A DNA stretch of 64,000 bases from Enoplolaimus lenunculus (lineage: Eukaryota). The notes below the pieces were generated by a model that did not search any database, had not been told where the DNA came from, and worked only from the letters and a program-made list of their open reading frames with translations. A program made the translations under genes and the position numbers. Each line of letters begins with the position of its first letter. Positions within the stretch are counted from its first letter, which is position 1. The stretch lies in contig JASANG010004128.1 in NCBI GenBank assembly GCA_030248215.1, positions 434,001 through 498,000 on the forward strand. The letters are read 5' to 3'. Shown piece by piece: positions 10,664 to 46,116 of this stretch.

Positions 10664-13600
10664 TTACAGCAACAACACGTAATTAGTGACCAGAGGAGTG
10701 TATAGAACCATCACAATGCTATATATTAAAAATAGCCATCTTGAAGTCCTACTAACTATTCTAAGCACTGGCGCTGCGTTGTACGGATCTTCTTCTTCTT
10801 GTCTAAAGCTGACACGATTCGGATTGATGCCTCTATTTTCACCCAATGGCACTAATGGGATCCCTTCGGAACCAGGGGATCGTGTGAACATGAACGGTTT
10901 GTCGTTTTTGTCAACGTTTCCAGGAACTTGAGGGCCAACTGACGGTGTTGGCCGCTGTGTAGTTTCTAAAAACATACTTTTTATTGATTTACTCATGCAT
11001 ACTAGTGGACTTCAGCGTTTCACCTTATAGTGCTATAAAATTCAGTTTTTTTCTGTTTCTACGGTGAATTCCAGGGTGCAACCGGAGGCCTGCCTCCGGC
11101 TCCGGCAAAAAATCGGCCTCCGGCTCCGGTATTTTTCAACTCCGGCTGTACCCTGGTCAATTCATAGCTAGTTAATCTGTAAGTAAAAACCGTGCAAGTG
11201 CCCAGAGCAGAATCTGGAGGGAAATAGCCGAGTTCCACGGCAGAATTTCCGCATCCGAGATAGATTACAACCTCGTTTGTTAGTAATAACGTAATTGCGT
11301 GGTGCCCTCAGGTTTAGCAATAAGAGAAGCTTATATATACCTATGCCTAAGACGTTGCCTCATTCCGAGCCCAAGCCACAACCTTAAATGTAGAAAAAAA
11401 ACCAATGTTGTTCAGTAGCTGAACTGTCGCACTGACAGTGAGTCTTTAATCTTCAAATAAATTCGATAACAGTAAATAATTTGCCATTATACAAATGAGA
11501 AAAAGATCACTTACTTGTAACTGGTCCATTCAAGAATGTATCGTCAATCGGGCAGTCAAGATTGTTTTCATCATTGGCAAGCGCTAACGCGACTACAGTA
11601 ACAAATTTCATCGTTTGATCGCCACATTTTGTTCTGATTGCAGACTGCAAATGAAAGTATTGTAATACGAATGAAAAAATACCTCGAACCCAATGCGAAC
11701 AAGTGTCCGCTGGCAACAAGTCTGACCTACACGCCTGTTGTTTGCAGTGGTGTCTCACTTTCAGCGAAGCACCAATAAAATAGGCGTAGCAATTAGGTTT
11801 ACACTTTACTTTTACGCATAGCCTTATGCTTATCCTTAGATTTATTGTTAATACGCTAATGTTAAAGTGGAGGCATAAGGACTGACTTAGGTAGAGCGTG
11901 CTTGGCGCATTAAGCTAGCAATGAAATAGCAATAAAGTCGTCATCAGTAGTTCAGATAATGCATTAAACATCGACATATTTTTGAATTCTGCCTCATCTT
12001 GAGCATCAATATCATCCATCAGTAGCGGATTCAAAAGTATACGAAACAGGGCGTGCGAAGAACTTACAGGCGAACCGAGCCAGAATCCAAACGTCATTTT
12101 AGTGCTAAATATTTATACAAAATCTTGGTTTTGATGTCTGTCGTGGGGAATACGCCGAGGTCCACCTTGGATCGGCCAGTGAATATCACATGCAATCTCC
12201 CGTACTTACATCAAGGCAAGTTACTAGTCGTGGTACGTCGAGCTCTAACTCAGCGGTTGACCTGGACGTTGTATTACTTGAGCGAAACAATCCTGAAGTC
12301 GAAAGACAGTTTATTATTTGCTCTTCGACGACAATTCCAAACAAACATTTCCAGTTCGATTGTTGAAGATTCTGAAACACAGCAGACCGCTATGTACAGG
12401 CATGCTTACTGCGGCGGGACTACGAGTTTTTAGGAGGTGGTGACTTTTGAGGCGCCAAAATCTTATCAAAATCCAAACTCAGAACATTACGTTAGTATTT
12501 CCGAGCCGACCTTGCGGCCGTTTCTTCTAAAAGCAGTTTTCGTGGTTCCAGATTAACAATTTATATACAAACAATATAACAGTTCAAGATATTCCGAATG
12601 TTTTTTTAAGTTTTGAGCAGGCATCTGAATTTGGAAAGCTTTATGTACTCGATTTGCCTCAGACACTTAATAATTTTTGGCTCTTGTACACATTCTTTCC
12701 ACGGCGCTTAAGTAAGCATTGTCCTAAGCCTAAGCCTAAGCCCGATCCTGAGCCTAAGTCTTTGTGTAAGCATTTACCTAAACCTGAGACGAAATATAGT
12801 ACTAAGTCTAAGTCTTGGACGTTTACAACAGCCTAATTTCTTGTTTTTGTGTGCTCATATTTAAAAATTCCCAATTGTAGTGATCCGAACAGGAGGAAGG
12901 GACTGATACTTATTTGGCCTCTCCATAGGGCACTCCTCCAAACAAGAAGAAGGGAATGATATTTATTTGGCCTCTCCATAGGGTACAAGTAAAAACAAGA
13001 AGAAGGGAATGATATTTATTTGGCCTCTGCATTATAAACTGTTATTTATTTCAAAGCCCCACTCCGTCACCCTCGTAACTGATATATATCCGGTATTACA
13101 ACTATCCGTTGAACGTTTGTCTTGTATAAAAAATTTGAGCGATAATGCAAGGTTATACTCGGAATGTACTTTCAAAACTTAACTATGCTTTAAAGTTTCG
13201 AAACCAAATTTATTTGGTTCTCCTTTAGTCATATATGCAAAATTATAGATAATTGACATTTATGGACTCAAATTTTACGGACTCTTATTAGGGATACGGA
13301 CTTCTATTGATTGGGACTTATAATGGAGACCTCTTGTTATTACCCCCTCCCCTAATATTCGGGCCACTACAGTAGTTAATAGAGCGTTATTTTTGGTTTA
13401 GCTAACTTTATTTTTATAAACGCAATTAGTACCCTAGCAAAGTCTGCACACAAAAGTGTAAAATAACACTAATATTTTAGATATTACCGTCTGTTGACAA
13501 CTGTCTTGTATTGCATGGGCCATACAACTATACGCCATACAATCTGTTCGCGTTACAGAACGCATGCATGGTATAAATTTCGTGCCATACGCTAAGCATG

Positions 13601-16600
13601 CAGCATTAATGGTCAATTCAACGCCGTTGGCAAAGTTTTGAATACCTAAAAGTAAAGCATAACTCTCTTGTACGCTTCCTCCCATCGGGTTAGGTTTAGG
13701 CTTAGCCTAAATTTTGCTCAAGTCTTACAACAAGGCAAATCGCTAGGGCTGAAAATCAAACAAATCTTCGCGTAAATCACGTGATGACAAATTTTCTATG
13801 AGAAATGATTATGCAAGATAACATGAATTAGGGTTTCGCTATACTTGTCGTGCAGCGCCGTCCGGTGCCGTCCGTCGCTGTACGTCACCGTGCGGCATCG
13901 TACGTGAACGGACGGCGCCGCAGGGCAACAAAAGTATATAGCGTAAACCCTTACGGGGTGCTTAATGTGTAATAAAACTGTGTGACTATTGACAAATGCA
14001 AATTCTTAAAATATCAATGAATAACGTCAAAATCAAGCGTTGCAAAAATACATTCGATAACTGAAAGCCTGGAAATGGGCTCTATATAATTGCTACAGAA
14101 TTCCCAGAACCAGTACCGGAGCAGACAGCGGTGGTGTCTCTCCAAACTCTAGGGTGTGGATCTCCAAACTGTCGAGCGAATCGAACGAGAAACCAGATGC
14201 ATTTTAAACATTCGGCGGTTTTTGTTTCAACCGGTTAGGGTGGGGCCCTTCAGGCGAGGCCCCCAAATGGAAGTATGGGAGGTGGCTGCTCCGGCTATAG
14301 ACTTATATATTTCTTTTTACCTGCGTTAGGGCTTTTTAATTTATATATACGTAATAATACATACGTTGAGGCTTAGGTTTATGAATATGCTTTAAAAACT
14401 GCAGTATCGACTCGGTATCATTTACCGTTATCAAATGTAGCCAACGCATGTGATTTCAACGACCGAAATGGACCAAAGCAGATATCCAGCTGCTGTTGTT
14501 GCAGAGCGTTACATTGTGGAGAAGAGAAATACAAATTTTGATCAGCAGAAGGGCCTAAAATTATGTCAACATTTCGTTCGCAAACGTTGTCAATGAAACT
14601 ATTCAGTGCCAGATTAACCTCATTATAAACCGTGAAACTATATATTCGGTTCAAAACCACATGGAGTGAGGAAGGCTCAGCATCCTATGAGAACTCTGTC
14701 CCACACTTATAAATGTTTTCACATCACTTGCAAATACTGCGATATTTGCAAATTTATAGTCAATTAAAATATCTTCATTTGTTTCGGCATTAAAAATTAC
14801 TAGTGACCGTAGTTGCATCCATGTGTACCTTTCCTAATGTGATTGGGTTTCACACGTTTTCGCAAAGTGTATACTATATCAAAGATGAGCATTAGACTAT
14901 CAGTAAACTTATGCCTACGTATTCTTTTGCGAACGATAAAAATTTCCGCAAGTTTTTAATAAATACCAATGCAAAATGAAAGTGGCACTCTTGACTATGG
15001 CCGCTATGCTATGTGAAATAGATGTTTACTTTACCTTCTGTAACCATTGGCGGAGCCGCTGTAACGAAAGTTACATTCGAACACTTGTTGATTTCTCGAT
15101 ACTCATTGATCTTTGCTCGCATGTGATCAAGCATAAAAAGCGCTTTTGGCGAACATACTTTCTCAACTTCTTTACGAATACACGGTTCGTATTCTGAGAG
15201 CGCTTTAACAATTTCACAAGCCTTGTCTCTGAAATTAGTTGTTGTGTTGTGCAATTTTTGTCCATCAACGAAACCTAAGTGTGTGTTTTGTACATACATA
15301 TCGGATTGCATACAAAAGTTTAGACATTTTCTGGTTTTGGCTTAGCTTTAGAATTAGGCTTAAGGTTTATTCTTCAGCATGTGGTAGCAAAATGTACGTG
15401 ACTACATTAGAATACATAATATATAATATATATGTTGCCGTTCGTAACAAATGTTATCCAAGAATCGATAAATTGATGAAAACTATCAATAACTTTTATA
15501 AAAACTTAAAGGCAATGCACCAAAAATCCAATTTTTGAGCCTGGCTTTTTGGTAAAACTGAAAAAGCCAAACTATTACGACAATGGGCTAAATTAACAAA
15601 ACTTGATGATTCGAAAATTAACAATACATACAAACATCATTGTATTACAAAATGGTTATAGTTTACAGTAACAATTAACATACGTTTTGCCTTCAAGTAA
15701 TTGATCAAAACGTTGAATCTTAACGACGTCTCCAAACTGTAGGCCGCATTGTTGATAAGCTGGATTATTAGCAAGCTTGTTCATGCAATCAGCATTTTGT
15801 CGTATTAAATCAATCATTGCTGGGTCGCACATTAAATTCGCCGACATGTTCGCCAGGCGGTCCAGGGGACTATCGACCTCAAATAGCAAAAAATACAATT
15901 GTGATCTCTGTTTGACAATGGAAGAAAACTGCATGCAGCACACACGAACAAGCACTTCGCGATGTAATCAGCTTATTCAGTTTAACGATATCAAGAATTG
16001 TAAGCGAAATTTGCCAATTTCATTAAATTGAACTAAATTAGCTATAGTAAAGGGGTCTAGTATGAAATATGATGTAAACCAGAATTGCCACCACTAGCAA
16101 ATCCAGAGGGGGATTTTCCCTTTCAGAAAATTGGCACATATACTGCGTACAGCAAAAGTTGCGTTTTAGAACTTTTGCCAGGCCGCCCACGTCAGAAGTG
16201 TTTGGATACATCGCTGATTGCCAGTCGTATAACCTGCATGAATGCATGTAGCTAGAGTTGAACTTCAGATAGCAAGTCAATTTCACAACGGATAACTCTA
16301 TTTCAGAAGGGCAGGTTTTAATTGATTAATTTACATTCTGAATGGTACTTAAACATATCAGCAAACTATCACTGTCCTCTTTTGGTGCGGTGATATGCCT
16401 ATCAGTCATCGGAAGGGAGGTTTCAATAGAATTTCACGTGGTTCTACGGAAGGTTTGGGGGATATAGTAAAATTTGTGAGGCAACGTATTAAGTAGTAGT
16501 ACACGAAACCTCGCGAGCAAAGCGAGCGAAAGTTTAATTATATTTTCGGGTCTGCTACTGGGGTACCCGAGCTTTCTGTTCGCACCGAACTCGGTACAAA

Positions 16601-19600
16601 AGACAGCCTGTTTGTTTAGGTTCAAAAGTTTCTAAAATACGTCAATCGGCTGAAATATTAGGACGGGCAGATTTAACTTTGGTCTGCCTTGTTCCGTAAT
16701 GTTTCACTTTAACTAGTTCATCACAATACGATGCATATACATATTTTTACGACTAAAAGAATGGTGAAAATATTCTTTCAGACAAAAATTTCTCAACAAG
16801 CTGAAAGCGTTTCTCTTGCAAAAAATATTATTTATATAGTTAATCGTTATTCAGCATTATTCCACCTCTAGCTGCCGTTTAAACCCTGACAGTACTACTA
16901 TCTTACCACACAATTATTTTCTTCTGCTTCAAGTGCCGCACATATTTGATAATCAGCGAACATTCCACAGACTTCGTCAAGTTTGGCTTGATTTTCTATC
17001 AATGCCAAGCGTTGCAGTGTTCCAATACTAAAAATGTAGATCGCTGATTAACCGTCACTTAAAATTAAATTCCGAGTTCATACCAGTTTAATTTTAGCTT
17101 GCATTAAAAATGTTGAGATAGTTAATTGTATTATATAAGAATTTTTAATGTTATTTAAATTTGTCCATCGGTTAGTTATACATCCTGCATAAATAGACCT
17201 TTAACTGCGGCAAAATGATGTCAACACCAGAACAGTAACCAATTTCTAAAAGCGCAATGTGGTTGGAATGCGTGTAAGCTATGTTCGACTAACAGGGTTA
17301 AATACGGGGCGTTGGCAGGATTCCAGAAAGCGATGGTATCTACAACCTCATATAAAGACAAATTATTTTGACATGTAGGATGCAATAGGTTAACCGTTTA
17401 ACGCGTTTTCTCTTGTCCATCCAGAAATTTCGGAAGGGGTATACGTAATTTATGAAGAAACAAGAAAAAACGCAGTTTTCTGGTTTTGAAAACCTGGTAG
17501 TCAAACGGATTTAGCGCTGCTGAAACTTGTTTACTTATAAAAAGCCGTACCTCATATCTGGCAAAACTTCCGGTAGTTTCATTAGTTTTATCAAACAGAG
17601 TATGGTATCTTCACTTTTGCAGCTTGGCAGAACATTAGTGACTGAAAACGTAAACAAATGCATGAGTAAATGATAAACAACTTGATCAATTGAGCAGCTT
17701 CGTAAACTTAAATTTGAACAATTAACAGATAGAGCTTGATTAATCATCAGTGATTGAAATGTCTGTCAAAAAATTGCATTAAATATGCAATTATGTTTAA
17801 GAAAAACAAAATATATTTTAATTTAGAGCACACTCAAGGTTTGTCACTACCTGATATAGTTCGAATACAGGCGGAGGAGAGAAATAAGCTGTCCGTCAGC
17901 CTGCATATACGGCATGGTAATTTAAGTATGCTCTATCTGCCAGTCCACCTCATTATACCGTCAACTAGACGTCGAGAAGCATGCTGCCAGCAAACATAAA
18001 ACATTTCATCATCTCGTAGCCATTACAATTTAGCCACAGTAAGCTGATGGCTTGCCATCGCATCAACCGGTATTAAAGAATTCAAGCCAAAAGCCATTCT
18101 TGATTCGTCGCAACAATTCAGTAAGTAACACTGCTGTGGTATAAATGGTTCAATCAACTGTTACCTTAAAGAAAGCTATGTGTCCATCAAACGACCCCAG
18201 TCCGAACGATTGAATGCTAAATCCAATCATACTCGTAGAAAATTATTTTTTGGCGATTACTACTGCGATGCCCCGATGTATCACATGAGGCCTCAATAAA
18301 TCATTTGGACGTCGAATTCCTATTGAAACTTATGAGAGCTCAATGACACACACTAAGGAGGGCGCACAAGGCGGTGACTTGGCCCTGGAATTGTTCGTTA
18401 AATTCAATGTAGTATTGCAGTCGTTGAAATATTTAATTATTTTGCAAAAATTTAAATACCGGGACAGTCTTTGGCCGCGACACATCGTCCGGTGATTTCG
18501 TCGCGAAAAAATTCCGATTCACAGTAACAACCAGGCGTACAAGCTTGTGGCGTTGAAATGTTGCAGGTTACAGTACCTCGATTCCTACAGGTCGGCTCGC
18601 ATGCAGGATGCCCGCAATCATCGTACAATTCGTGCGGATTTGTACAAGACAAGTCGACTACAAAACGGCCAACAGGATGTATTCGAGAAGAAATATTTGT
18701 TTTGAGGGAAGCAAGGATTTCTGTTATGTATGTTAAGTCTTGAAGTAAAATTTTGACCTCTATCTGTAAGGTTACCAGTTAACCAGGCTATTTCGTGGAA
18801 TTTCCCGACTGAAATACATTCATCCCTGCCCTTGTATACGTCTAAATTTTTGTTGAATTTAATTATAATCGCACACGCTGAATATCTGCTCGCAATTTTA
18901 TTCTGTAAAAATGGACATTTTCTTTTAAACCCTTCGAATTTTGTAAATAAAACGATGAAAAAAGTCAATACTATGTGTAGTTTCATCGTTGAAATTTGTT
19001 ATCGTTCTTGCTTGAAACTAAACAAGCTTATGTGAAATTCGTTGAACAACAGCTACACATTGATGGTGCCGTTGCCAAAAAGACTGCGGCAGGAGAAGAG
19101 TAAACATGGCGACATATGCTTGCCTGCTTGCCAGTTATAAGCATTTAATGCATTGCATTGCCTTGCATGTTTGCCGCCAGCATAAGTTTCGATATATAGA
19201 AGCCAGTGTTACAAGTAGTTGATTAAGCAATCTGCGTGGCTTAATGGTAACCAAATTAACTGCAACGGATAAGGTTTTGGGCCCATGTATAGAACAGGGC
19301 CGGATCGTTTTCGAGAGGGACTATAATAGTTAGTTTATGATTTAGACTAATTTTTTTGCTTAGGCTTAGGCTTAGGCTTGGCTTAGGAATAGGCTCATCC
19401 ATACTTTTAGGCTTAGGCTTAGGCTTAGGCTTAGGAATATGCTTATACTACTGTTCCGGCCCTGTTCTATACATGGGCTAGGTTTCGTATTCAAACCAGC
19501 ACCGTTAGGTCTCACGTTCCGATATAATTTTTACCGTGATTGGCAAACGATGGTAATAAAATGAACCGGAAAAGGGAACGAAAGCATACGTAACGGGCAA

Positions 19601-21565: not shown

Positions 21566-23496
21566 ATTGCCAAAAACTATACCGAGGGGTAAATCAGTTA
21601 ATACATTTTGCAGACTAATAAGGGTTGCTGCATGATAAATATCTAATAGTAAACTAATTTTTTCCAAAATGCAAAGCTGAAAACACAACTGAACTTCCAA
21701 CTTCAACGCCAGCTTCACCGTTTACAGTTGGATTAAGATCAAAACTTCGAACCGCATAAGCACTTTCTTACCGCTGATTTAGCAAACGCACCATATTTAG
21801 AGTTAAATATTTTTTATATTCTTCAAGACATTATGCCTTGAAAATCTCAATCCTTAAATTAACATTTTGAAGGTGCAAAATTTTTGTATGCTAATTAATT
21901 ATTAAATATAAACAGCTAAATATAGCTTGCAAAGCACTCTTTTAGGCAAGATCGCGCTTTGAACTGCCCTGGTGGTCCATTTTTCAAACAAAACTAACAA
22001 CCCTGCAACAGATAAAAATAGGTTCGTTTTGCAAAATTGTGTTCACTGCCGTCCTGGCTTTTATTTGAAGTTACAACGAAGATCAGCTCATGAAAATTTG
22101 ACGCTGCTGCGTTTATCACGAAAACATTTTCGCTCGCCTTTTACGTAACCATTAATGAACGGGTAACAGCAGTTGACACTGACGGAAAATACCCTTTCAG
22201 TGAAACTCCATTGTTATATGCGTTTGTGGTCGACGAAATATTAAAAATTCTACAGTTGCGTTCAATAAATTTGACGCTGCAATGATTTTTGAAGCATAAT
22301 ATTTTGTTTACAAATGTCAAATGATGCTAAAATTAAATATTATTCGTGCGGAAACTGTGTTATTAGCGTATCGCTTTTTGCACCTTTCACACTGGTGACT
22401 GACGCAAAGTTCGCTGTCTTTTCGTCGAAGATTTCTTGCTCTGCGACAAATCACACTGATGAAAGAATTTGACGATGTGTTTATACTCCACACACACACC
22501 TGTGTATTTCTGTCGACTAAATCGCTAAAACTAAAATACAACGTTCACTAGCAAAGCGAGCTAGAAGCCAAACGCGTACTAAATCTTATTACAAAATTTT
22601 TTATTGTGAGATTCCTGTAGTTGGGACATGGCAAGTGTGGCCCCAGATAGATCCGCTGGGCTCTCGTACATTTTCGCCCGTGCATTTACGATTAAAACTT
22701 GCCGTTAGGCTTAGAATATCGCTTAGGTTGAAAAAATGCTTAAAATTTACGGTCACGCAAAGACAAGCTTTGTCTTAATCCGAAATTTAAATGTAGGTTA
22801 ACTGTACAAAAGAAGAATCCGCAAATCAACGAAATGCGAAATACTGATTATCATGTTTTCGAACTAAACAACGTAGTCGATTTTGAGGAAGTAAAATAAG
22901 TTTTTTCTTACAATAAATCTAAAAAGTTCAACATTTTAGATGTAGCGTTCTGAACGGCGAAAATTGCATCAAATTAGAAAATGTCCATGATGATTTATGT
23001 TTCATTTTACGACGAATTCGGTTTATTAAAACATATATTTTTAAAAAATCTCTAGGCCTGCGTATTCAGAATACGTACACAGTTGAACGTAAATGTTCAT
23101 TTCATAATTTATAACAGCATTATTTTTGATAGAGAAATATTTTAAACAGGAAGGAAACTTGACCCGGTATTGATTCTTAATTTGTCACTGCTAAAGGGCC
23201 CATACTTTGGTTTTTAAGGAGCACGAACATCTGTATATAGGGCAATGAAAAACGACAACAGCCAGCATAAGCACTATGCTTAATAATATTTTCCGACAAA
23301 ATACGAATCAGATCCTTTTAATTAAACTCAACGAAAGCTGGTAGGTTCGACGAATTGGTACTGAACAAAACTAATGTGCTAATAAAGTTGCGCGTTTGTG
23401 GTGTTAATCCATGTAAAGAAAGGTAAAAATAACGTCCCGCAAAGATTTGAAAAAGTTGAACTCACATAAGTGGACGAGTTCAAAGTGATAAATGAA

Positions 23497-23775
23497 GGCC
23501 TATTCACACGGGAAAGTTTTTGCTGCGAGAATTTACAGCTGTAAATTGCACGCAGATCTTGAATTTTTTCATCAAACAATGAGAAAACGGCTGCAATAAC
23601 TTCAGTGAATTTGCACGGTTGTTGCCACATGCGAACTAAATTAATGAATTATTTGCAGATGCAAGTTTTTCGAACAAGATTTTGGAAAAACTTGCAAGGA
23701 CCAGTTGCAGCTACAAGTGCAAGTTTCAGCCGTAAGTTCTGACAGCAAAAACTTGCACGTGTGAAGTGAACAGGG
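23497..23775. mobile_element. MITE, TTCACACGTGCAAG family (opposite orientation)
   Basis: GGCCTATTCACACGGGAAAG ... AACTTGCACGTGTGAAGTGAACAGGG. Confidence 0.7.
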
Positions 23776-25413: not shown

Positions 25414-25487
25414 TATAAGTTTAAACGTCAAGTGTTCGGATAACACAACTATAAGTTTAAACGTCAAGTGTTCAGATAACACAACTA
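25414..25487. repeat. 36-bp tandem duplication
   Basis: TATAAGTTTAAACGTCAAGTGTTC(G/A)GATAACACAAC x2. Confidence 0.85.
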
Positions 25488-34700: not shown

Positions 34701-37700
34701 GATGAGCAATCTACACAGCACCAGCCCTGCCGTACTGAAAATTTTGCCACGCAATTAATTCACTTGACACTCATAATGTTTTCCAGCCAAATAGGTGAAA
34801 AATATGGCTAGGCTACGTACATTTTTGCGCACTAGGCATAATTGATCAATCTTAAACATAGAACAATTCCCAAAAATACACTTAAAAGTATCCTCACCCG
34901 CCGAAAAATGCCGGATCCATCACTGCACCAATAATTAACATGCCCCAATGTTATCAACACCAACTTTTGTTGGTTTAGTTTAGTTTCCGTGACCAATTAG
35001 CTTCAACTCGAGGGCTTGTTCTTGCAAAAAAACAATACTTGTACCATTAATTTAATTAAAAAACGCTCTGTTCACGTCATTTTCTCAAACGTGTGTACAA
35101 TTAGTATTACTAATGTTTAAAACATTTTGTTTTCCGCAACAAAAATTACTCTCATAATTACCCGGACTCAAGACTTGTCCTTGCAACGGGACAATACTGG
35201 CACCATCACCGCCGCAATTACGAACGCAGTCTTCTTGATTCAAATACGGAATTCCGTAGGTTGCGTCCGACTGTAAGTGGCAAGACATCGATTGCCTTTC
35301 AACGCATCGATTCGGTTGACGATCACAAAACCAGCAATTGGTGAGTCCTGCTGCTGGTGGAGACTTGCCCGCGGGAACTGTAAAACACCAAATTTTGCAT
35401 CAGCTTCAACATTTGGAAAATGTAGCTGATTGAAGTTTTTTGTGTGCGAAACGTTTTGTGACAAACTCAGTTTATCTTTACACGGTAAAATCATTCCGTT
35501 ATAGAATAGAAATGTATGTTTCTAAACTTCGAGTTCGGTATTAGTATTTTAGTTCATTTATGTTTTGAAATTTAAAACTAAAACTGGAACACAATAACAC
35601 TTTTTTGCAAACGGCATTAGTCGACGTTGATTAGTAAGCACGCAATTCTGAACAGAGAGGAAAATAACGTACACCAACCTTTAGGCGTTTCCCTGAACAA
35701 TTAGAGGTAACAAATCACTGTTAGGCTTTGAAGCTCAAATAATTACTACATTATTTAACCAGAAAACGAATCGGTTAAAAATCTTTGTTAATTTTCGTTT
35801 TTGTGAGAATAAAAGCAATTCCGTCATTTTGAAGTTCAGTTCGTTGCTAATCATCAAAATAGCCAATCAGTTTTCAATACTTGTACATGCTTCAATATTT
35901 CGATTTCAACGACAACCAACCAAAAATCGTTCAAAATTTTAAAAAGTTTCAGTGCATCCGCTATTTTTACTAAAATTTAAGAGTCCACAACGAATAATTG
36001 TGCAATGTAACTATTGGAACAAAAATAGCACGTTTTAAATTTTCAAAATTTAGATCTTTGCGCTATTTTTCCAATAATTTAGATGAACCACGAGAAAAGC
36101 TGCATATTTGGATAGTCTTGGCACAAAAAACACGCCTTTCAATATTTTAACTTATCAATCTTATATCAGTGTTTCATTTTTGTTTCCAGCATTTTGATCA
36201 CTATATCCATTTCCGATATTGCTGCTTTACCCGACTTATGCTCCTTTCTGAAGTATATCTGTAATTTCTAAACGTATATATTGCATGCAACCTGATAATA
36301 TATAAATACACGCATGTGGGGAAACGCTCGTTTTATTTCACTATATACATTTCATCACCTAATTCATTTGGTCGGCCGTCAGGACATTTTGCTTGACACA
36401 CAGGTCCAGTTGCATATGCATACACGGACGAGTTTCTGCAATCTTGTTCATTGAATACTGCGTAACAATGTCTTTGTTGTTGGTTGCATATGTAGCAATA
36501 AACGTATCCAGCACCAAACCCGCCAATGTTGTTATTGTTAGGTGAAGGTGCTAAATTTAAGCTTTTGCACGGTGTGAAACATGATGTCATATTAAAGAGT
36601 TTATTTTGATCTTAATTCATAACCGAAAATGTCTTCATGTAGTGGGCTTAACGCCAAAAAATGGTAATTCCTCGGTTTTTTTGAAAATATGGTTGTACAG
36701 CATCGGGCGGATCATAATTGAAGCCTGTGCAACGTGTAATTATGTAAATTCATCTACAAGTATGTGAGTAAACGTAACAGAAAAGCAGAAAAGGTGCATG
36801 CATCTGCATGATGTGGGTGAAAATATAAACCACCACCAGAAGCTACACAAGATGCAGTAAAATTATATTGCCCGTTACAGTTAGATGCCCCTCTTTAATT
36901 TATATTTTTTTGCTTAGCTTATAACTTAGGCCTTAGGCTTAGTTTTAAACGTATTCTTACGCTGATGATTAGGTTTATGCTTTGGTTTAGGAATATGCTT
37001 ACGTTCTATTACGAAACTAATAGTAACATTGGCCACACCACTTAGTTACATGCTTTTTATAATTAATATATTGCAACTGCAGACAAACCTGCACAGTTGA
37101 CAGTACACTGTCGATTAGTAGCAAAAAAATTCACAGTTGGAGGATTCTGACATAAAAATGTATCATATACTGGAGCACATTTGCTTCTCGCTCGAATACA
37201 CTCATAACAAGAAGGTCCAGCCACAGTAATCCCTACGCCACCCGGCTTCGACAGCGATCCGTTGTCTATTATACCTGAAATTATTAGAAAATCATTTCGT
37301 CTATCATTGTAAACAGCTAAAAGTTGCCTTTCAGTGAGTGACGCTAATTGTTTTAAATTGTCATTGCAAAAACGAACTTGCTGTGAACAGAAAATTGATG
37401 TTTAAATTTGATTTAGACTCTCAGCAACAATAAAACCCGTCTTCAATTCGGAAACTCAAAATGTGGTTTCTATATAATTGTAATTCTCCTAAACTCAAGG
37501 TGTTGTTTCTATATAATTGTAATTTTCCTAAACTCAAGGTGTTGTTTCTACATAATTGTAATTTTCCTAAACTCAAGGTGTTGTTTCTATATAATTATAA
37601 TTCTCCTAAACTCAAGGTGTGGTTTCTATATAATTTTGATTCTTCTAAATCACCACATAATTGACAAAAGTCGTATTTTTATATCGATAACATTTAGCAA

Positions 37701-40700
37701 CTTATTAACCTATTTCAGTTCCATGATCTGGAGCGCTGCCTACACCCAAACAGTTGTTCATGCAAGCCTGTTGCGTTTCGAATGCATTTGCCGTTAAATC
37801 ATCGCAAATGCGAAAATTGCGCTGGGGCGCACACGATCTTGTTGCTTTCGAACAAGTGTAACACAATGGGGACGTTTCGAGTGGCCCTAAACATGTTGTT
37901 TCTACTTTTCTGTACTTGCGGCTAACTGCAGTAAGTTGTGGTTATTATATACTAAGCGTGGGTAAATTCCGCATTTTTCAACATGCTATTCAAATTTTAA
38001 AGTTAAGTTGTGCATGTTGGTAGGCTAGGTATACCTATGCACTGATGAATCCGAAACGGGGCACTCAGGCAAAAGCCCCGCAACAGGGATCAAAATTAAA
38101 ACTTCGCATTATGATTTAGTAATAAAATTCCGTTTGGTTTTTCGCTCGTAAGCTTTTTCACTAGTATATATCGCGCGGCCTATGTAGCTGTGAACTACGG
38201 GATGTGCCACTGGATATTTATGCTGGCAGGATTCTCAAAAAATTTCTCCACTTTCATATATTTGTCTCTATTACAGTAGTAATTGGTATAAGCACGAATA
38301 AATTCAACATATTTCAAAGGAAGCATGATTTTCAAAGTTAATTTATGTATATTATTTGATATATACCGGTAGGTCTCTTAGGTTTCGCTATAGTGTCTAG
38401 TTATGTTCAACGAATTGCAGCTAGGTGTTAGGCACGTATTCACATTGAAAGCTTCATTCAGTTGTGTTTTAGAAGTTTCAAAAATGGTATAATAGCGCGC
38501 CAGTTAGAGCGCTTGCGAAAGAATGAACCTTAAATGCAACTGCAAACAGTAACATTCAAACTTTCAAGGGATCTGATCTCAGACGAGGTATATCATTCCG
38601 AGTGCAGTATAATTTCAATTTAAAACGGTACGTCAGGAAAAGTCCCGTAACTTATAGTTGCTAATTGTCCACTGCTATAATGTTCGCTAACATCCGGGTA
38701 CAAGCGGAGGTCTGCCTTCGGCTCCGGTAAAATTTTTGCCGGAGGTTCGGGCAATTTTGGTAGTAAAAGTTTGCATAATTTTCCTAAATTTATCGGTTTA
38801 GCGCGTTTTGATTGACTTTTGCACAATTTTCACGAAACAATTGCCGAAATTTGGCAGAAAATTAGCGTGAAACCAAACAACGTAACAACATTTTGCAAAT
38901 ATTGGCTAAAATTGACAAATTAACCATCATTTTTACTACTTAATTTCGCCTGACCTCCGTCTCCGGCTCTGATTCCGGCTCCGACAAGTTTCGTTGACCT
39001 CCGGCTCCGGTATTTTCACCTCCGGTTGCACCCAGGTGTACATCAACGTTCGGTATGGATACTACTGCGTTATAGAGATGTCTAACAAGGCATCTGATGT
39101 TGAAAATACATATTTTTAACTCATGTACAGATCAGAACCGTACCGTTTCTCCACGCGACAGTAATATAGTAATCTTAAGCTTCAAACTAATTTTTTGCTT
39201 AGGTTTTGGTTCAGGCATAGACTTGGATTTAGGCTTAGGATAAACTGTTACAGTTCTGTTCTTTAATACTTTGGCCGCCGCTTTTATATTTTTTTATTGT
39301 TATGAACCTGTATGAATGCCATAATCAGGCCCCGATTGAACACAATTCGCAATGCACGTTTGATGAGTTTGGAACAAATTTTCGGTTAAAGTTGGATTGT
39401 TACATACATGCATATCGATCTGACCGCTACAAGTGTACGTAGTTTTCGAACAAAAATAACAAACTGGTTGTGTAACCTGGACTGTGCCTAAAACGTATAA
39501 CTTTCATCATGGGCAGATCACGGCCTATTGTGTCCTGAGGCTGGTTTAACTTGTCGATATGGGCACATGTAATATAGTTCGATAAAACATTGGTCAAAAA
39601 TATATTTCTTCATTGCAAAATTTCATTTTTGAAGCGCTAATCACAAGTGTCTTGACGCTCAGGCCCTAAGGTCGCGGGCTCACAAGACTCCGCTATGCAC
39701 CGCAAATGGCGTTCAGTAGTAATAATTGTAAGTTGTTGATTGAATTTGATTGCGCCACATCTAATGAAGGTTTGCTGTATCGGTAGCTTTTAAGTCAGCT
39801 TCTTAGTAATATGGTACGCATTCAGCAATGGTTGTATGAATTAGTAATGCAGTACTTCTTCTGTATGGTGGACCGGAAGTTTGGACTGGAAGTTTTCAAG
39901 CTTTTTAAATTGGTGTTGCAATAACAATACAATTTTATAGATTTTTAACTTTTACACTTTATTATCCGTTCATGTTTTGTTATTTTCAGTACTAACCGTT
40001 TCGGTTTCCGCCTGGTATTTACTTACTGTACAAATTCGACTTAAACCCAATTTACTTTCTACCGACGAATATTTTGGCGACAAAATTAAATTTTATAGTG
40101 ATACACTTGCCAGTTTATGCATATGGGATCGTGTCAAGCGTATAACGACGCTATTCGAAATGTTTTTCGCGTTTCAAACAATCTTTCAAAACGGTTTTTG
40201 AAAGCGGATGCCCTTCAAATGAGAAACGCTAGTAAATCAAAAGCTCTATTATGTATCAAAACGGTATTTTGGCATCAATATAAACGCTTACCGCAAAACG
40301 CGAATAGTTTATGCTTTTTTGACACGATTCTTATTTTGACTGCATCCTATCTTAATATGCATAAATTACAAAGTTAACAAACCAGGTTGAGACGAAACAA
40401 ATCCGTTGCTTAATCTACCAGAACAACTGTATACACAGTTGGCTTTTGTATCAAAGTAGTAGCGCGTTGGTGGAGCATTGCATATGTTATTGTCGTTCAC
40501 TGCAAGACACTGCGCAGTATCTGGCACACATTGGTAACAATAAGCGATAATTGTTCGATTTGGTTCCGGTTTTACTGTAAGTATTATTAAGATAACAATT
40601 CTTTATAATTTAGTTTACTGTTTACGTCGTATCCAGAGTACGGGATGGAAGGACTGTCGGTTGCCCGTCAAACCGTCCGGTTTTACTGCAAGTATTAATA

Positions 40701-43700
40701 AGATAACAGTTCTTTATAATTTAGTTTACGGTTTACGTCGTATCCAGAGTACGGGATGGAGGGGCTGCCGGTTGCCCGTCAAACCAGGAATTCATCTATG
40801 TTAAGTAAAGACACACTGCCTCACTGAACTTACCTTAAGAATTTAACAACTTTTTTTGGAAAATTTTTTTAGTCATTGCCTTTTAGACGCAATATCTCGT
40901 CTTTCGGTGACGGCCCAATCCAATCCAAATTCATTTTGAAACAACTTATTCAGCGTTCTGAAGCGGCGTTGGGATACTTAGAAGTTAGTGTAGCATGAAT
41001 TATTATACTTTCTCAATTAAACATGACTATAAAAACTTGACGTCATATTTTCAAAAATTTCCAATCGCAAAAAATCAACAGTTGCTTCTGCGCAGTTTTT
41101 CCGGTTTCAGAACAATTATATTTGACAGAACCGTTGCTTATATCTTGTCTTTGCAAGAATTTAGTCTCGTTAACATTTTGTATATTTTACCATGTCAGCG
41201 TTACAATGCGTGAATTATTCAAAATAAAACCAACACTTTCGATCTTTCACTTCCTTCCTTATAGGGTTCCTAGCCTTCTTCATTTATCGCGTTTACAACA
41301 AATAAATTAATGAGTCTGAATTTCTGTAATGTAACAGGTTTTCCATTTAGAAGCACTATGTTAAGCTTGAGACTAAGACATTATTATTTTTAGAGTAGCG
41401 TTTAGATTCATTTTGATGCCTAGTATTTACTGCGCATAAATGATAGATCCACCAAAGGCTTTGTATTATATACCGTTTAAAGAAGTCATTATATAACATA
41501 ACCGTTTGATGAGCATACAGAACTTTGTAACACTGAAACGCGTTTAAATTGTAAGCATTGTGAAAAAGGGTAAAACGAAATAATTAGCATATATTGTGCT
41601 CGTGAGGCTAATGTGAACCAAAAATGCAGTCAGCGCTAAATAAAATTCCGATCATTTGACCGGAATAGTGAGAATGAGTTAAGGCCTCCTAGAACAGTTC
41701 AGGTAAAAAACCTCATAAATATTGTGGTAACGCTTGAAAATCATCGAAACTCCCTGCACGCCCCTCCTGAGAGTTTTCTGTGCCTTTTTAAAACTATATT
41801 TGGGCTCCTTTAACATGGTGAGGTTAACACCTGGCTTGCATGAAGAGAACGAAACATTTGCTTATAGCACCAAGCCATGAATTAGCACTGACATTATTAG
41901 CTTTACCTGGTTGAACAATTGTTGGCGGACGGCAGTTATTCTGGCAATTTATAGAAGTATCGTAATAAAACTTTGCCGGATTTCTACAAGTGTCCATTGA
42001 ATTAATTCCACTACAAAATCCTGATGCTGAGGCACACTCGTAACAGTAAGGGCCAACCACTCCTAGCGTTCCTATAAATTTGAAATTTTTACTATACTTT
42101 TGTCCGAAAATTTGTTCAAAAAAGTAAAAAATGACCAAGTTTGCCAGCATAATGCCTTCTTGTTTAGTGTATTATTGGCTTAGATTGCACTTACAAACAA
42201 TTGTTAGTATATTTTTTGTGATCAAGACAAAAATATCACATATAACGCTTAATAAATGAAATCCATCACCAAAATTGCTAATTACAAAGCGGACGCAAAC
42301 CAATCGTGTATTCACTCACTGAAAACGGCACAATTTCTACAACTTGACGATTAAAAACTGTTTCGCTGCCGGAAATGGATTGCAACGCCAAATATGTTTT
42401 TTGGAACTTACAGTTCATAATGTATATCAAACATTTTTTAAATCAACTCCGATTTTAAAGCGAAATTACCTTGAACGATTAATTAAAACATTTCAATGCT
42501 TGCTAAACCAGGGAGTAACCGGAAATCCGTTTCTAATAAAAGTCAGTGTCGGTTTTTGTTTCCGTCATAGAAATATTGGAATTCCGTTTTTATGCTCAAA
42601 CTTAGTGCAAAATCATGCACAGATCGTGCAATTTTTCATTACAGATATTACGCAATTGTCCGATATGAAATATATAAAGGACTAAATTCGTCCAAGATCT
42701 TAAAAATTTGGTTGTATCCGCTATTTTTTCTATTTTTGCGTGCGTCAAATTTATCGGCAGAAACATAAAACATTTTTGAAACATTTATACTTCAATATAC
42801 GTTTTCCATTTCCGGTATTTTTAATCCGTTAATACACTGCAGGTGAACAATGATGTTAGTGAAATGATACACAACTGTTAGAAATGACGCAATGCTTCAC
42901 TATAAAAATGTAGAATTATTAGTAATTCTAAGTTAAGCAGTATCATATGAAGCCCTTCGCAAAAAATTTGTTGCGGATGCGGTGGGGCTCAAACCAACGA
43001 CGTAATTACTACTGCTCAGTATTGCACAAGATACCGCTGTATACAACTTAAAACTTGGGTAGGTCTTGATTGACAATTTAGACTCATGCAGGTGAGCGAA
43101 ATCCGAAGCTTAACCATTTAAATTAGGTTATTTTTTCGAAAAACGGGCATGCCAAACACCAATCAAACTACTAACCAGGCGAAGGCGCAGGAAAACACGC
43201 CCTTGAACATTCTTCTCCGCTCAAATAATGGTGATCACTCCCAGAGCAGTTCAAAAACGTTACGCATATTTCGCATTTTTGTGTTGTCGTCGAGCAAAAA
43301 TAGTATCTTTCAGCTGAAAATACTTAAAAATTCTTAATGATTTCAGTAGTTCAAACGCGCTGTATGTATCTGCGGTGACTGTGGGTTTAATTTTTAAAGC
43401 AAAAGACAAAAATTAACATTTACAGCGGTGTATACATGAAAAAACAGATGAGGATTTATCCTCTTCCAAAATTTTTGGAGAGGCAGAAAAAGTGATTTAG
43501 TATAACCATCCGGCTCCAAAACAGGTCCAAAAAACCGTCGCTCGCTACGCTCGCTCGGAAAACAAATAAATGCATGAGGGTACCCCCTTTCTAAATCAAA
43601 TCATGGCTACGCCACTTAAAGTCTCACCAGTTGTGTCAGGAATCGGCAACGGACCCCGTGGTGTTGTTCTAACCGCTCCACCATTGATGTCAAACGGTCC

Positions 43701-46116
43701 AAGTAATCCGTTTCCAGTATCGATATCGTCATCTCCTATCCCAGTACAATGCTCTTCTCTTGCAATTTCACTTGTAAATGTGTCAATTTCGTTCGCAATC
43801 GCAGCTCCTATGCCTCCAGCGCCACACAAATCTGTCAAACTGTGGCGAGCGCACACCGAATACTCGGCAATTGCTGCAATATTATCACAAAAACCATCGT
43901 TACCATCTGTTTGATCCAGAATTTTTTGTTGTGCATTTTGTCCGTTTACTCGAAATGCAGCGCCACAAGCGTTGATCATATCATTTTCCGCTGCTTTTTG
44001 GCGACACATTGCGTCTGAAGAAAGAAGTGAATTAATTCGAGTCTGACAGTAATATCGCATCAGTGACAGAAATGATTTTTGTCGCTGATCTTCGTAGCGT
44101 TTACAGTCCGCAGGCTGTGCCGATTGGCACGTCAAGAATGTGTTATATTCAGCACAAAGTTTGGTGACAATGTTTGCCGGCAGCATATAAATTGGATGCG
44201 TTACTAATTTAATTTCACGAACTACATCGGCTTGACCCGCGACTGTTCGTGTAAATTTGGTGTAGCATTCTTTGAAAGCTGCTCGTGAGTCGTCAGAGCA
44301 GCCTTCGTTGCTAAACGGAAACAATGGATTGTCGATGTTTGCCGGTGTTGTGATTGTGCCATGGGGTTGTTCGCGTGAAAGTACGGGTCGCTTACTTATC
44401 TGAACTGTTGAAACTTTTGTCGTAGCTACTGGAGCTTGAGTTGTTTTTGTTGTTGCCGTTTCAGTTACATCAGCGGAAACTGTTTCCGCAGTTGCATTAG
44501 TTTCGTTCAGTGATTTTGCGACAGGTTGAAATTGGCGATTGGCAATTTGGTCATTTTCAACTGCAAGCAACGGGTTGTGGTTGACAGTTTGAAAACTTGA
44601 TGCAAACGCAGTATTTTCAGCGTTAGGGCCAGCTGAGCTGTCCGTAGATTCGGTTCCGATTGGCTGGCAAAATTCACGTATATCTGCAAGCGCATTTAAG
44701 TATTCAGTTAAAAGATTGTTCAGTCCATAGCACGCTAGGTTGACTTTGAATGCAATACAACTAATAAACTGTTCAAGCGGCTCTAGTCGAGCACATGACC
44801 ATTTTGAAGCGATGACGTCATTGAAATCTCGAGACGCATCATCATATTGAGACTCGCACATGGCAATGACGTGATCTGACCGTAAAGCAGACAGACAGTT
44901 AGCGTTTGATTCGAATGCTTCAAAGTTTTCCGGTGTACACATTACTGAATAAAATCGGGATAGCACACGAGCAACGTTCAAGTCGCAAGAATGAGAGCTT
45001 GATTCAGAGCTGAGCTCAAATAAAACTCTCGTAGGGCCAGTATCATGATTAGTTTTTGCCGAGCTAATCTGTTCAAGTAAGGATGTCGCACACAAACGAT
45101 ACTTCGAGTACGCGTTGCAGGTACTGTTAAGACCGAGCAGAGATTCGTGAGAAAAATAAAAGTTTGGCGTGAATGTTGACAGCGGAACGCCGGCGACGTG
45201 CTCAAGACACGCGTTTAGCGATGCTTGTTGTGTGCAGTGTGCACCTATAAAGAAACATTAACTATATTAGTTTACATCTTACCTGCTCTAAGTGTATAAG
45301 TACTAGTGATAGGCATCGGATATTTTTTCATATTCAAATATACAGATACATATGGATATCCGGATATTTCTTTTCGAATGCATATTCGGCTTTTTTCTCT
45401 ATATGGATATCCGGATATCTGGTGCCCACCTATAATAAGCACTAATTACAAACCGTCCGCGCGCGTGCATTAAATATGCAATGCGCATAGTTTATCAGGA
45501 CTTTACGTGTGTGTAGTACAAAATCTGTACAAGATGAGAGAGCCCTGTGGCGCTTGATCGACGAACGATATACTTGAGTAGTGGTGGTAAACACCTCCTA
45601 CTAGGTGTCTGATAAATAGAACATATTTGCGTCAAACGAATTCAATTTTGTATGTTTAAGAAATTTGTCTCTTCTGGAAGAAGTTCTGACACAACTGTGA
45701 GTGAAGTAAAATTCATGCGTCCTCGAAAGTTTTTGGGCCCCTGTGGCCTGTTCATCTGGCTACAGATCAGTGCTAACCGCGTTATTTGTTACATAGTAGT
45801 CAGCATGCTAAAATACGATTATGACTAATAAAAATGTTTGGGGCTTCTTGTTGATGTCTTATATTTGAAAGCTGGTTTATAGGTTTTCTTTTTATGTTCA
45901 CAAAATAATACTGTATGAATATTTTCAAAAATAGTTTGTCTCAGTTTTTCTGCTGGATTAACAATTAAAATATACCCAAGCTTGAAAGATTGTATACTCA
46001 GGTTTTGAAAATAAAATATAAACTGCATTATAAAATTCAACCTTACCAATTAAAGCAGGAACAAAAGCATATGCAAGCAACCCGATAAGTGCAGATACAG
46101 GCTTCATCGCGGTCAT
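25766..46116 (-). CDS. Gene A: secreted cysteine-rich mosaic protein (~1464 aa). Exons 46116-46047, 45244-43628, 42071-41907, 40574-40419, 39487-39308, 37886-37710, 37274-37089, 36550-36359, 35377-35162, 34408-34166, 33139-32873, 32021-31893, 31324-31199, 30498-30328, 29481-29353, 28001-27819, 26035-25892, 25809-25766
   Basis: The signal-peptide exon reads [24 protein letters not shown]. Every internal exon is AG/GT-bounded, phase 1-1, a multiple of 3 in length and stop-free, and exons 3-17 each encode one Cys module. The last exon ([14 protein letters not shown]) is the least certain part. Confidence 0.8.
25892..29481 (-). CDS. Gene A exons 15-17: three copies of a second six-cysteine module (type B)
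   Basis: [33 protein letters not shown] (29481-29353); [33 protein letters not shown] (28001-27819); [33 protein letters not shown] (26035-25892). Cys spacing is identical in all three. Confidence 0.87.
29066..29277. mobile_element. Near-palindromic MITE
   Basis: GTCAAATTGACTCTCTCCGAAACAGGCTCTACGGGAC is mirrored by GTCCCGTAGAGCCTATTTCGGAGACAGCCAATTTGAC; ends ACTG...CAGT. Confidence 0.72.
30328..30498 (-). CDS. Gene A exon 14: TIL domain (missed by the ORF track)
   Basis: [53 protein letters not shown]. Acceptor TTTCAG, donor GTGAGT. Confidence 0.92.
31199..31324 (-). CDS. Gene A exon 13: LDL-receptor class A domain (missed by the ORF track)
   Basis: [42 protein letters not shown]. Acceptor TTTCAG, donor GTAAGT. 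Confidence 0.93.
31893..32021 (-). CDS. Gene A exon 12: type A six-cysteine module
   Basis: [43 protein letters not shown]; 129 nt, phase 1-1. Confidence 0.85.
32524..32813. mobile_element. Degenerate hAT-like MITE
   Basis: CAGTGGCGGATC ... GGATCCGCCACTA termini. Confidence 0.5.
32873..33139 (-). CDS. Gene A exon 11: TIL domain (missed by the ORF track)
   Basis: Manual translation: [56 protein letters not shown]. Acceptor TTTTAG, donor GTAACG. Confidence 0.92.
33385..33680. mobile_element. MITE, TTCACACGTGCAAG family
   Basis: Colinear with 47291-47582; same inverted termini. Confidence 0.78.
34166..34408 (-). CDS. Gene A exon 10: TIL (trypsin-inhibitor-like, Ascaris-type) domain
   Basis: 10-Cys pattern [57 protein letters not shown]. 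Confidence 0.92.
35162..42071 (-). CDS. Gene A exons 3-9: seven tandem copies of a ~40-aa six-cysteine module (type A)
   Basis: [273 protein letters not shown]. Confidence 0.85.
37453..37636. repeat. 39-bp minisatellite, ~4.7 copies, intronic
   Basis: Unit AACTCAAGGTGTTGTTTCTATATAATTGTAATTTTCCTA. Confidence 0.92.
38694..39035. mobile_element. hAT-like MITE (CAGGGTGCAACCGGAG family)
   Basis: CCGGGTACAAGCGGAGG ... CCTCCGGTTGCACCCAG. Confidence 0.7.
40565..40785. repeat. 111-bp tandem duplication overlapping the acceptor of gene A exon 4
   Basis: TCCGGTTTTACTG(T/C)AAGTATT...CCCGTCAAACC at 40565 and 40676. Confidence 0.92.
43628..45244 (-). CDS. Gene A exon 2 (1617 nt): two large Cys-containing, probably helical domains (nematode CPG4/DUF19-like spacing) separated by a Thr/Ala-rich mucin-like linker
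   Basis: Contains nearly all of the 499-aa ORF, which stays open upstream to the acceptor TTATAG|GT. Donor ACTG|GTGAGA. Linker [33 protein letters not shown]. The domain family assignment rests on Cys pattern only. Confidence 0.8.
46047..46116 (-). CDS. Gene A exon 1: signal peptide
   Basis: [24 protein letters not shown], phase-1 donor G|GTAAGG; second in-frame ATG at 46107. Confidence 0.8.

Follow-up and report, generated by a model that had tools for sequence, protein, structure and literature searches.

A predicted nematode mosaic protein with thirteen small modules that are most likely truncated Kunitz domains

The 29 minus-strand exons that lie between positions 46116 and 10664 of the window (the whole 64,000-nucleotide stretch of DNA that was analysed) are predicted to form one open reading frame, encoding a single secreted, likely GPI- or tail-anchored nematode protein of 2,110 amino acids. 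Judged from sequence profiles and predicted folds, its thirteen small cysteine-rich modules most likely represent shortened Kunitz domains without the P1 loop, a relationship that was missed in the preliminary description of this DNA. The explanation that we prefer overall, to which we assign a probability of roughly one half, combines one anchored protein, headless Kunitz beads and protease inhibition by TIL domains.

Spliced by coordinates, the exons total 6333 nt and give a product with 172 Cys residues and a single stop, at its end. The domains run in the order signal peptide, two large helical Cys domains, the 13 small modules interleaved with four TIL domains and one LDLa domain, two further large domains, and the tail. 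Each of the 28 introns is bounded by GT and AG, phase 1 is found in 23 of them, and every one of exons 2 to 20 is symmetric (1-1). The preliminary description had read about 30 minus-strand exons joined in frame through GT-AG junctions, which agrees with the 29 exons and stop-free frame found here at the level of predicted junctions; its picture of an exon-shuffled extracellular and probably surface-anchored mosaic is likewise supported. A mosaic with one module per exon is a familiar type of animal extracellular protein.

The chain opens with exon 1 (46047..46116), which holds the start codon (ATG at 46116 or 46107), a signal peptide whose best ten residues reach a hydropathy of 2.48, and a phase-1 donor of 8.6 bits. 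It closes with exon 29 (10664..10965), where a Pro/Ser/Thr/Gly-rich stalk and an NAA motif precede 24 uncharged terminal residues (mean hydropathy 1.88) and the stop. The end of the protein had been called a GPI-type tail. It is indeed hydrophobic and GPI-like, but it may also be a tail-less transmembrane anchor, because 38 residues separate the NAA motif from the C-terminus, far for a GPI site.

When splice sites were ranked with a leave-one-out site matrix, no nearby AG outscored the chosen acceptor in any of the 27 internal exons (27 of 27, where chance would give 8.3), and the chosen donor was the best GT in 24 of 27 (chance, 4.5). There is some circularity in this ranking, as the chosen sites themselves set the centres of the regions searched. 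The least certain splice site of the chain is the acceptor of exon 23 (15877, GAG). A further terminal exon was rejected (the internal donors of exon 29 reach at most 3.8 bits), as were extra cassette exons (four weak candidates, none module-like) and a recent tandem duplication, since comparison of exon against exon at the DNA level gave no match. A search of Rfam also gave no match.

We hold with good confidence that the locus is one gene. A secreted protein paired with an anchored one had been proposed earlier, and we do not prefer this arrangement because all exons share a single frame behind a single signal peptide, a search of introns 2-28 gave no further exon of the signal-peptide kind, and introns 2-3 contain no AATAAA. 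In such a two-gene locus, which we consider unlikely, a secreted protein would comprise exons 1-2 or 1-3, with a stop just past the donor, and an anchored protein would start from an internal ATG at 42150 or 28116. Reading through the exon 2 donor does reach a stop after 10 codons (43596-43598), the exon 3 frame meets one immediately past its donor, and two of the 27 internal exons, numbers 4 and 17, are preceded by an in-frame ATG and a hydrophobic segment (best ten-residue hydropathy 2.17 and 2.36), with no such ATG at the last exon, which was also scanned. However, ATGs of this kind are present at 2.2% of decoy acceptor-like sites (10/465), so that about 0.6 would be expected per 28 exons, and the junctions that would have to be discarded are strong and in phase, with donors of 7.3 and 9.0 bits at exons 2 and 3 and acceptors of 8.0 and 8.9 bits at exons 3 and 4. 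It is because of the signal-like in-frame ATG at 42150, upstream of exon 4, that we leave the two-gene arrangement a small share of the probability.

The small modules number 13 rather than the 12 counted earlier: the nine of type A stand, whereas type B has four members, not three, because exon 3 (43176..43313; module B0) belongs to it. Type A modules 1 to 7 occupy exons 4 to 10 (41907..42071, 40383..40574, 39308..39487, 37710..37886, 37089..37274, 36359..36550 and 35162..35377), module 8 is exon 13 (31893..32021) and module 9, with a shorter hairpin turn, is exon 19 (19715..19843). The remaining type B modules are B1 in exon 16 (29353..29481), B2 in exon 17 (27819..28001) and B3 in exon 18 (25892..26035), the last followed by a 6048-nt intron. 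Each module exon contains exactly six Cys, spaced C-x2-C-x4/6-C-x7/8-C-x13/17-C-x3-C in type A and C-x4/6-C-x2-C-x4/5-C-x12-C-x3-C in type B, with 33-39 residues from first to last Cys. The window contains the type A spacing 9 times and the type B spacing 4 times, as against 1 and 0 times in 30 shuffles, and no additional copies of either type were found elsewhere in the window. Outside the Cys the modules are strongly divergent (mean identity 16%).

Compared with BPTI/Kunitz domains (PF00014, MEROPS I2), all 13 modules keep the spacing of the last four Cys, at about 30, 38, 51 and 55 in BPTI numbering, and an aromatic residue at position 45 (Phe45 in BPTI); Ser or Thr is found at the equivalent of position 47 in 10 of 13, and Tyr or Trp at that of position 21 in seven of nine type A modules. 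The canonical Kunitz pattern is CX8 CX15 CX7 CX12 CX3 C, with bonds 1-6, 2-4 and 3-5 (PMC3273431). In contrast, none of the 13 modules has a Cys at pattern positions 1 or 2 (Cys5 and Cys14), and each has two new Cys, one near position 23 in both types and a second near 20 in type A or at 33 in type B. Several module exons begin after P1; exons 3, 13 and 19 start at the equivalents of positions 17-19 (exon 13 at about 18), which leaves no room for a Kunitz head. A Kunitz domain split across two exons was rejected, there being no Cys beyond the six in any module exon. The arrangement of one domain per exon is shared with the Kunitz genes of ticks (PMC3273431).

The P1 binding loop and its role in Kunitz inhibition have been described (PMC3273431), and without a P1 loop held by Cys14-Cys38 the standard inhibition mechanism would be closed to the A and B modules, which makes it doubtful that these 13 of the 17 candidate heads (13 small modules and four TIL domains) are standard inhibitors. 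By analogy with known matrix proteins, we consider it an even bet that the protein serves as a tethered apical-matrix scaffold with a TIL shield against proteases. The 13 modules would then act as beads with a structural or binding role, but no inhibitory one, in an apical matrix such as the cuticle or gut lining, and any protease inhibition would likely come from the TIL domains rather than from the Kunitz remnants. The multi-Kunitz protein MLT-11 patterns the C. elegans cuticle (PMC13181417), and BLI-5 shows no inhibition in vitro.

An improbable alternative is that most of the truncated modules do inhibit proteases, through a new surface formed by the variable Cys30-Cys38 loop or by the preceding linker. 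The interleaving of small modules with TIL domains would suit a multi-headed inhibitor, as would their divergence outside the Cys, which is what target-specific heads would show; in addition, the fold matches include non-canonical Kunitz inhibitors (Ixolaris, by entry title), and Sc-KU-4 is able to inhibit without the Cys2-Cys4 bond. Sc-KU-4, however, retains its P1 loop and Cys1-Cys6 bond, whereas at least three of the 13 exons here start downstream of the P1 position, and no P1-like residue, whether basic or aromatic, is conserved in the A and B alignments.

The TIL domains (PF01826), by comparison, are readily recognised. TIL1 (exon 11, 34166..34408; E 1e-11), TIL2 (exon 12, 32873..33139, including a linker; E 6.6e-14), TIL3 (exon 15, 30328..30498; E 9.7e-14) and TIL4 (exon 20, 18460..18657; E 3.6e-8) all exceed the 24.5-bit cut-off, at 33.9-52.2 bits, and have 10 Cys each. 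The P1 position of a TIL domain presumably lies within the putative reactive loop between Cys5 and Cys6, which has three residues in TIL1-3 (C-T-F-Q-C, C-T-E-R-C and C-N-L-P-C) and a non-canonical seven in TIL4. Among Ascaris-type inhibitors, TIL1 aligns with the chymotrypsin inhibitor AMCI (1CCV; E 9.8e-11), its loop falling on CTMQC, and from its sequence it is the best candidate for a chymotrypsin-type inhibitor. Unlike the TIL-bearing mucins, FCGBP and VWF, the protein has no VWD or C8 domain that we could find; the loops of TIL3 and TIL4 are atypical.

We consider that the 13 modules are very probably of Kunitz descent, as domains without the N-terminal third, since profiles and predicted folds alike match only the part of Kunitz domains that corresponds to BPTI residues ~16-58. 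Searched against PDB sequences, a profile of type A plus exon 3 gave Kunitz proteins in 46 of 48 matches (best E 0.041), type A alone in eight of eight (best E 0.83), and type B in seven of eight (best E 0.02), the type B profile having no sequence in common with that of type A alone; the matches fall on the C-terminal part of the Kunitz domain. Every Kunitz sequence E-value is 0.02 or higher, so no single match is significant. Compared with each other, the A and B profiles reach a probability of only 34%, over the C-terminal 18 columns.

AlphaFold models of one representative per type, exon 7 for A (pLDDT 86.3) and exon 3 for B (81.9), contain a hairpin and a C-terminal helix, as in Kunitz domains. 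Among the Foldseek matches listed, 49 of 49 for type A and 50 of 50 for type B are Kunitz, none reaching E<=0.001. A second, non-Foldseek fold search of 48,161 chains gave Kunitz in 22 of 25 (A) and 23 of 26 (B) matches at Z>=2, with alignments over Kunitz residues 16-57 (rmsd 2.9 over 41 residues) and 19-57 (3.1 over 38), again starting beyond Cys14; its best Z of 4.5 is below the 7-8 that this tool names as the usual top score of a model that matches nothing clearly. Kunitz domains thus make up most of the matches in all four fold searches (TM-score 0.48-0.73), although the matches are not mutually independent and AlphaFold may be biased towards a fold with many solved structures. Each score is weak, yet two profiles that share no sequence and two models all lead to the same family, which we take to point to a Kunitz core.

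The modules might instead be an independent hairpin-helix mini-fold that has converged on Kunitz Cys spacing. All Kunitz scores are indeed below threshold, and the Pfam Kunitz model is matched by exon 3 alone, the most Kunitz-like module, at 12-13 bits (best 13.2; E 0.11-0.26) against a cut-off of 21, with no match for the other 12. Nevertheless, both profiles and both models pick out Kunitz alone, although the PDB covers numerous families of small disulfide-rich proteins, and the retained residues at positions 45, 47 and 21 are Kunitz marks other than Cys, so that we regard convergence as a long shot. Weaker still, and very unlikely, is a host-interface effector precursor shed and cut into Kunitz-like peptides acting on ion channels or host factors, in the manner of tick Ra-KLP, which is the Kunitz match of type A with the best TM-score (0.64) and lowest rmsd (2.0 A) and modulates maxiK channels without inhibiting proteases (PMC3273431): only three R-x-x-R motifs occur in 2110 aa, so that the modules are not regularly separated by cleavage sites, the channel-binding 'base' takes in an N-terminal 3-10 helix (PMC3273431) absent from these modules, and nothing points to a parasitic source organism.

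For modules of Kunitz descent, we suggest that a Kunitz exon was the ancestor and was later duplicated repeatedly as a phase-1 cassette. The Cys30-Cys51 bond would be retained, the new Cys near 23 would take the place of Cys5 as partner of Cys55, and the new Cys near 20 (type A) or 33 (type B) that of Cys14 as partner of Cys38. In BPTI, positions 20 and 33 lie side by side on neighbouring strands, and Tyr23 packs against the 5-55 bond. We lean slightly towards a new family of minimal headless Kunitz domains (~BPTI 20-55), devoid of the N-terminal third and its Cys, in which the core was re-closed in two ways (A via 20, B via 33) and spread 13 times within one gene, whose 19 consecutive symmetric exons are perhaps spliced combinatorially to give a variable surface coat.

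Altered Cys patterns are known from other deviant Kunitz domains, namely Ra-KLP (2W8X), Ixolaris, I. ricinus G6, conkunitzin-S1, Steinernema Sc-KU-4 and MLT-11 Kunitz 8. Ra-KLP has lost standard inhibition, as proposed for the modules here, and the other five have lost the Cys2-Cys4 bond, Sc-KU-4 being stated, in the available part of its source, to keep Cys1-Cys6. In the available parts of the sources, none of the six is described as having lost the whole N-terminal third and gained replacement Cys. The nearest analogue in overall design is C. elegans MLT-11 (with BLI-5), a large secreted nematode mosaic of the apical matrix that has about ten Kunitz-type modules among Cys-rich domains (PMC13181417). 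In contrast to the protein described here, however, its Kunitz domains are full and are joined by thyroglobulin and Lustrin domains, whereas TIL, LDLa and CPG4-like domains and a membrane anchor lie outside its described architecture.

The novelty appears to lie in the loss of the whole Kunitz head, with two replacement wirings side by side. If confirmed, the modules would be natural BPTI cores of 33-39 residues, would allow a direct test of whether the BPTI core folds alone and of how disulfide bonds change place over evolutionary time, and could serve as a compact, stable scaffold. Classic work on BPTI folding used peptide models of this core region. Since these modules are invisible to Pfam, similar ones may be unannotated in nematode genomes.

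The architecture had been described as unfamiliar, and the searches of proteins and metagenomes, which found no relative, uphold this. The type A profile gave no match at E<=0.001 among 1,835,955,588 protein representatives; in leave-one-out trials four of nine single modules passed this threshold and one was filtered out. Exon 6 had no usable match in the ESM Atlas. A degenerate DNA pattern for A modules, which recovers five of the nine A modules here and is too loose to be informative, was run on 3/64 of the metagenome and 51/64 of the viral contig parts, and none of 235 loci exceeded 10.5 bits or had a clean six-Cys pattern. Word-indexed searches gave no homologue of exon 2 among proteins of 943-2690 aa and 295-942 aa, nor of a D1+D2 profile among proteins of 107-350 aa (weak negatives), and none of 67 pattern matches of exon 2 to metagenome contigs was confirmed. 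No description of the module or the architecture was found in the main text of open-licence PMC articles and bioRxiv preprints.

The large Cys domains reported earlier are confirmed, and their number is fixed at four. Exon 2 (43628..45244) encodes two 12-Cys domains, D1 (~44667-45236) and D2 (~43746-44300), separated by a Ser/Thr/Ala-rich linker; mucin-like linkers had been noted before, and this one is only moderately mucin-like (S+T 26%). D3 (15035..17641) is assembled from exons 21-24 (17551-17641, 16907-17027, 15684-15877 and 15035-15228) over introns of phase 2, 0 and 2, and its resemblance to the intron-free D1 and D2 (24 and 20 bits) counts in favour of the exon chain. The divergent D4 (11515..14554; exons 25-28, 14426-14554, 13488-13645, 12210-12371 and 11515-11644) scores at most 3 bits against D1-D3 and is grouped with them by Cys pattern only. 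A weak lead to helical Cys domains comes from the ESM Atlas clusters nearest to D1, which bear the names CPG4 (PF15481), DUF19 (PF01579) and DUF1397 (PF07165) at 0.90-0.83, the top one (0.90) being a nematode CPG4-named cluster, with a recognition score of 2105 that is below 2300 and outside the reliable range. However, the corresponding Pfam models match neither D1, D2 nor the single D3/D4 exons scanned, D1+D2 have no match among PDB sequences, and the four copies here bracket the chain of small modules, both ends of which they would cap as CPG4/DUF19-like helical domains. DUF1397 proteins are found in insect peritrophic-matrix proteome lists.

The LDLa module (PF00057) in exon 14 (31199..31324) scores 49.2 bits (E 5.9e-13), so that the four TIL domains and one LDLa domain assigned earlier all pass their Pfam cut-offs. 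It has six Cys and a putative acidic Ca-binding motif, and relative to LRP2 repeats it carries Gln instead of Asp before the fifth Cys.

The small six-cysteine modules of the gene, one per exon, nine of type A and four of type B, were given no name by the Pfam scan. When their profiles were compared with PDB sequences, Kunitz domains made up 46 of 48 matches for ten modules including exon 3, 8/8 for the nine A modules and 7/8 for the four B modules; all of these matches have E values of at least 0.02 and lie on the C-terminal part of the Kunitz domain, and some of the PDB entries are taken as Kunitz from their names. Modeled with AlphaFold, one A module (pLDDT 86.3) and one B module (81.9) each show a hairpin and a C-terminal helix. 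In Foldseek, Kunitz structures fill all of the best 49 of 71 matches for the A model and all of the best 50 of 80 for the B model, none with E ≤ 0.001. A structure search of 48,161 chains at Z ≥ 2 returned Kunitz in 22 of 25 (A) and 23 of 26 (B) matches, with alignments covering Kunitz residues 16-57 and 19-57, respectively, and a top Z of 4.5. On an absolute scale these Z values are low, and the case for Kunitz rests on convergence upon this one family.

In BPTI numbering, the type A cysteines correspond to 20, 23 and 30, and those of type B to 23 or 25, 30 and 33, followed in both by 38-, 51- and 55-like cysteines. Position 45 is aromatic in 13/13 modules, and the turn is two residues shorter in exon 19 and B1-B3. 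No module has a cysteine at 5 or 14 (0/13), and three module exons begin at the equivalent of BPTI 17-19; measured against the standard Kunitz cysteines, bonds and P1 loop, as outlined in PMC3273431, these features place the modules outside Kunitz membership. The A and B profiles align weakly with each other (34%). Judged from sequence and modeled fold, both types most likely descend from Kunitz domains. From BPTI geometry, bond 30-51 would be retained, 23-55 would be a new bond, and the third would join 20-38 in type A or 33-38 in type B.

The type A profile found 0 proteins among 1.84 billion representatives, at a sensitivity where 4/9 held-out modules would pass singly; the remaining homologue searches were weak or uninformative. 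Deviant Kunitz domains without Cys2-Cys4 are known (PMC3890586, PMC3787073 and PMC13181417), and no description of a headless Kunitz, lacking the N-terminal third, was found in searches of open-licence literature. The novelty lies in the module, not in the architecture plan, as mosaics of this kind are common.

The window DNA is AT-rich and of eukaryotic type, with 38 copies of TTAGGC and 23 of GCCTAA; 17/28 introns have TTTTAG or TTTCAG acceptors. Such repeats and acceptors point to a nematode. The exon chain was obtained by reading the minus strand, listing splice sites round each cysteine-rich frame and splicing by coordinates. It comprises 29 exons (46116 to 10664, minus strand) and encodes 2110 residues, 172 of them cysteines, with a single stop at the end. 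GT-AG borders mark each of the 28 introns, the first 20 of which are in phase 1. In a partly circular test, the picked acceptor was the top local AG in 27/27 internal exons (8.3 expected) and the picked donor the top local GT in 24/27 (4.5 expected). A less circular check on the gene model comes from D3, a large cysteine domain spread over four exons (introns of phase 2, 0 and 2), which matches the unbroken D1 and D2 of exon 2 at 24 and 20 bits. Exons have a GC content of 0.447 vs 0.362 for introns, and A spacing of cysteines occurs 9 times in the window vs 1 in 30 shuffles (B spacing, 4 vs 0). No DNA similarity is detectable between small modules in the module-exon comparison, and mean identity outside the shared cysteines is 16-24%; since every cysteine is nonetheless kept, this divergence suggests an old, intact gene. 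Within intron 1, 45283-45429 (minus strand) is a 147-nt open phase 1-1 stretch with one cysteine and strong splice sites of 6.5 and 11.0 bits, possibly repeat-derived or an alternative exon. The acceptor of exon 5 has been doubled by a 111-bp tandem duplication (93% identical) at 40565-40785, and its upstream copy is a decoy acceptor whose frame runs into a stop.

We put the probability that the whole chain is one gene at about 0.8. The preliminary description had proposed two, encoding a secreted and an anchored protein, and some features would suit it: exons 4 and 17 have an in-frame upstream ATG and hydrophobic stretch, of which about 0.6 are expected from decoys, and reading through the exon 2 donor would yield a short secreted form. 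A scan of introns 2-28, with criteria that pick out exon 1, shows no second signal-peptide exon, and AATAAA is absent from introns 2-3.

The single protein would read, from the N-terminus, signal peptide, D1, linker, D2, B0 (the type B module of exon 3), seven A modules, two TIL domains, A, LDLa, TIL, three B modules, A, TIL, D3, D4, stalk and hydrophobic tail. The four TIL domains and LDLa pass Pfam cut-offs; for the large domains, Pfam gave no match to D1, D2 or the D3 and D4 exons scanned, and PDB none to D1 and D2. The ESM Atlas clusters closest to D1 bear the names CPG4 (nematode, 0.90), DUF1397, DUF19 and CPG4; a cluster of a bacterial hypothetical protein ranks second (0.89). Recognition of D1 falls below the reliable range, and a putative CPG4/DUF19/DUF1397 kinship serves as a lead only. 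DUF1397 proteins are listed in peritrophic-matrix tables (PMC5865745, PMC8035744), and DUF19 has many genes with no knockdown phenotype reported (PMC8410859). The protein ends in a tail of 24 uncharged residues that lacks a cytosolic part, and the obvious small-residue motif sits 38 residues before the C-terminus; a GPI anchor is predicted as likely.

TIL domains can also play a structural part, as in FCGBP, VWF and mucins, and these proteins are among the top TIL matches. TIL1 aligns to a bee chymotrypsin inhibitor (loop CTFQC vs CTMQC), the loop residue that serves as P1 being our assumption. Chymotrypsin-type targets go with an aromatic P1 (PMC5309989 and bioRxiv 10.1101/2024.10.04.616518). 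MLT-11, which has ten Kunitz domains and whose domains differ in role, patterns the C. elegans cuticle (PMC13181417), and BLI-5 increased protease activity in vitro instead of inhibiting it (PMC11304992). By analogy with these proteins, and given the DUF1397/DUF19 lead, the TIL1 loop and the structural TIL precedents, we favour, at about even odds, a role for the protein as an apical-matrix scaffold that is tethered and carries a small number of true inhibitory heads.

Some 18 kb upstream (46200-64000) contain no recognized gene, with no Pfam match above cut-off for four long frames and none in Rfam; 46900-58500 reads as repeat-rich. A multi-exon gene at 1315-6036 (plus strand) runs in the direction of the studied gene's 3' end; its ligand-binding piece matches SBP_bac_3 (E 6.6e-5, below cut-off), its later exons carry hydrophobic segments, and it may be a divergent receptor of the ionotropic glutamate type. 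A short MITE-like element is present twice, at about 5015-5240 and 19270-19480, each copy having terminal inverted repeats round degenerate TTAGGC arrays. Repeats of 41-326 nt (70-88% identity) are common to intron pairs 6/18, 13/17, 10/19, 3/9, 11/18 and 6/28, and the 6-kb intron 18 contains several dispersed repeats.
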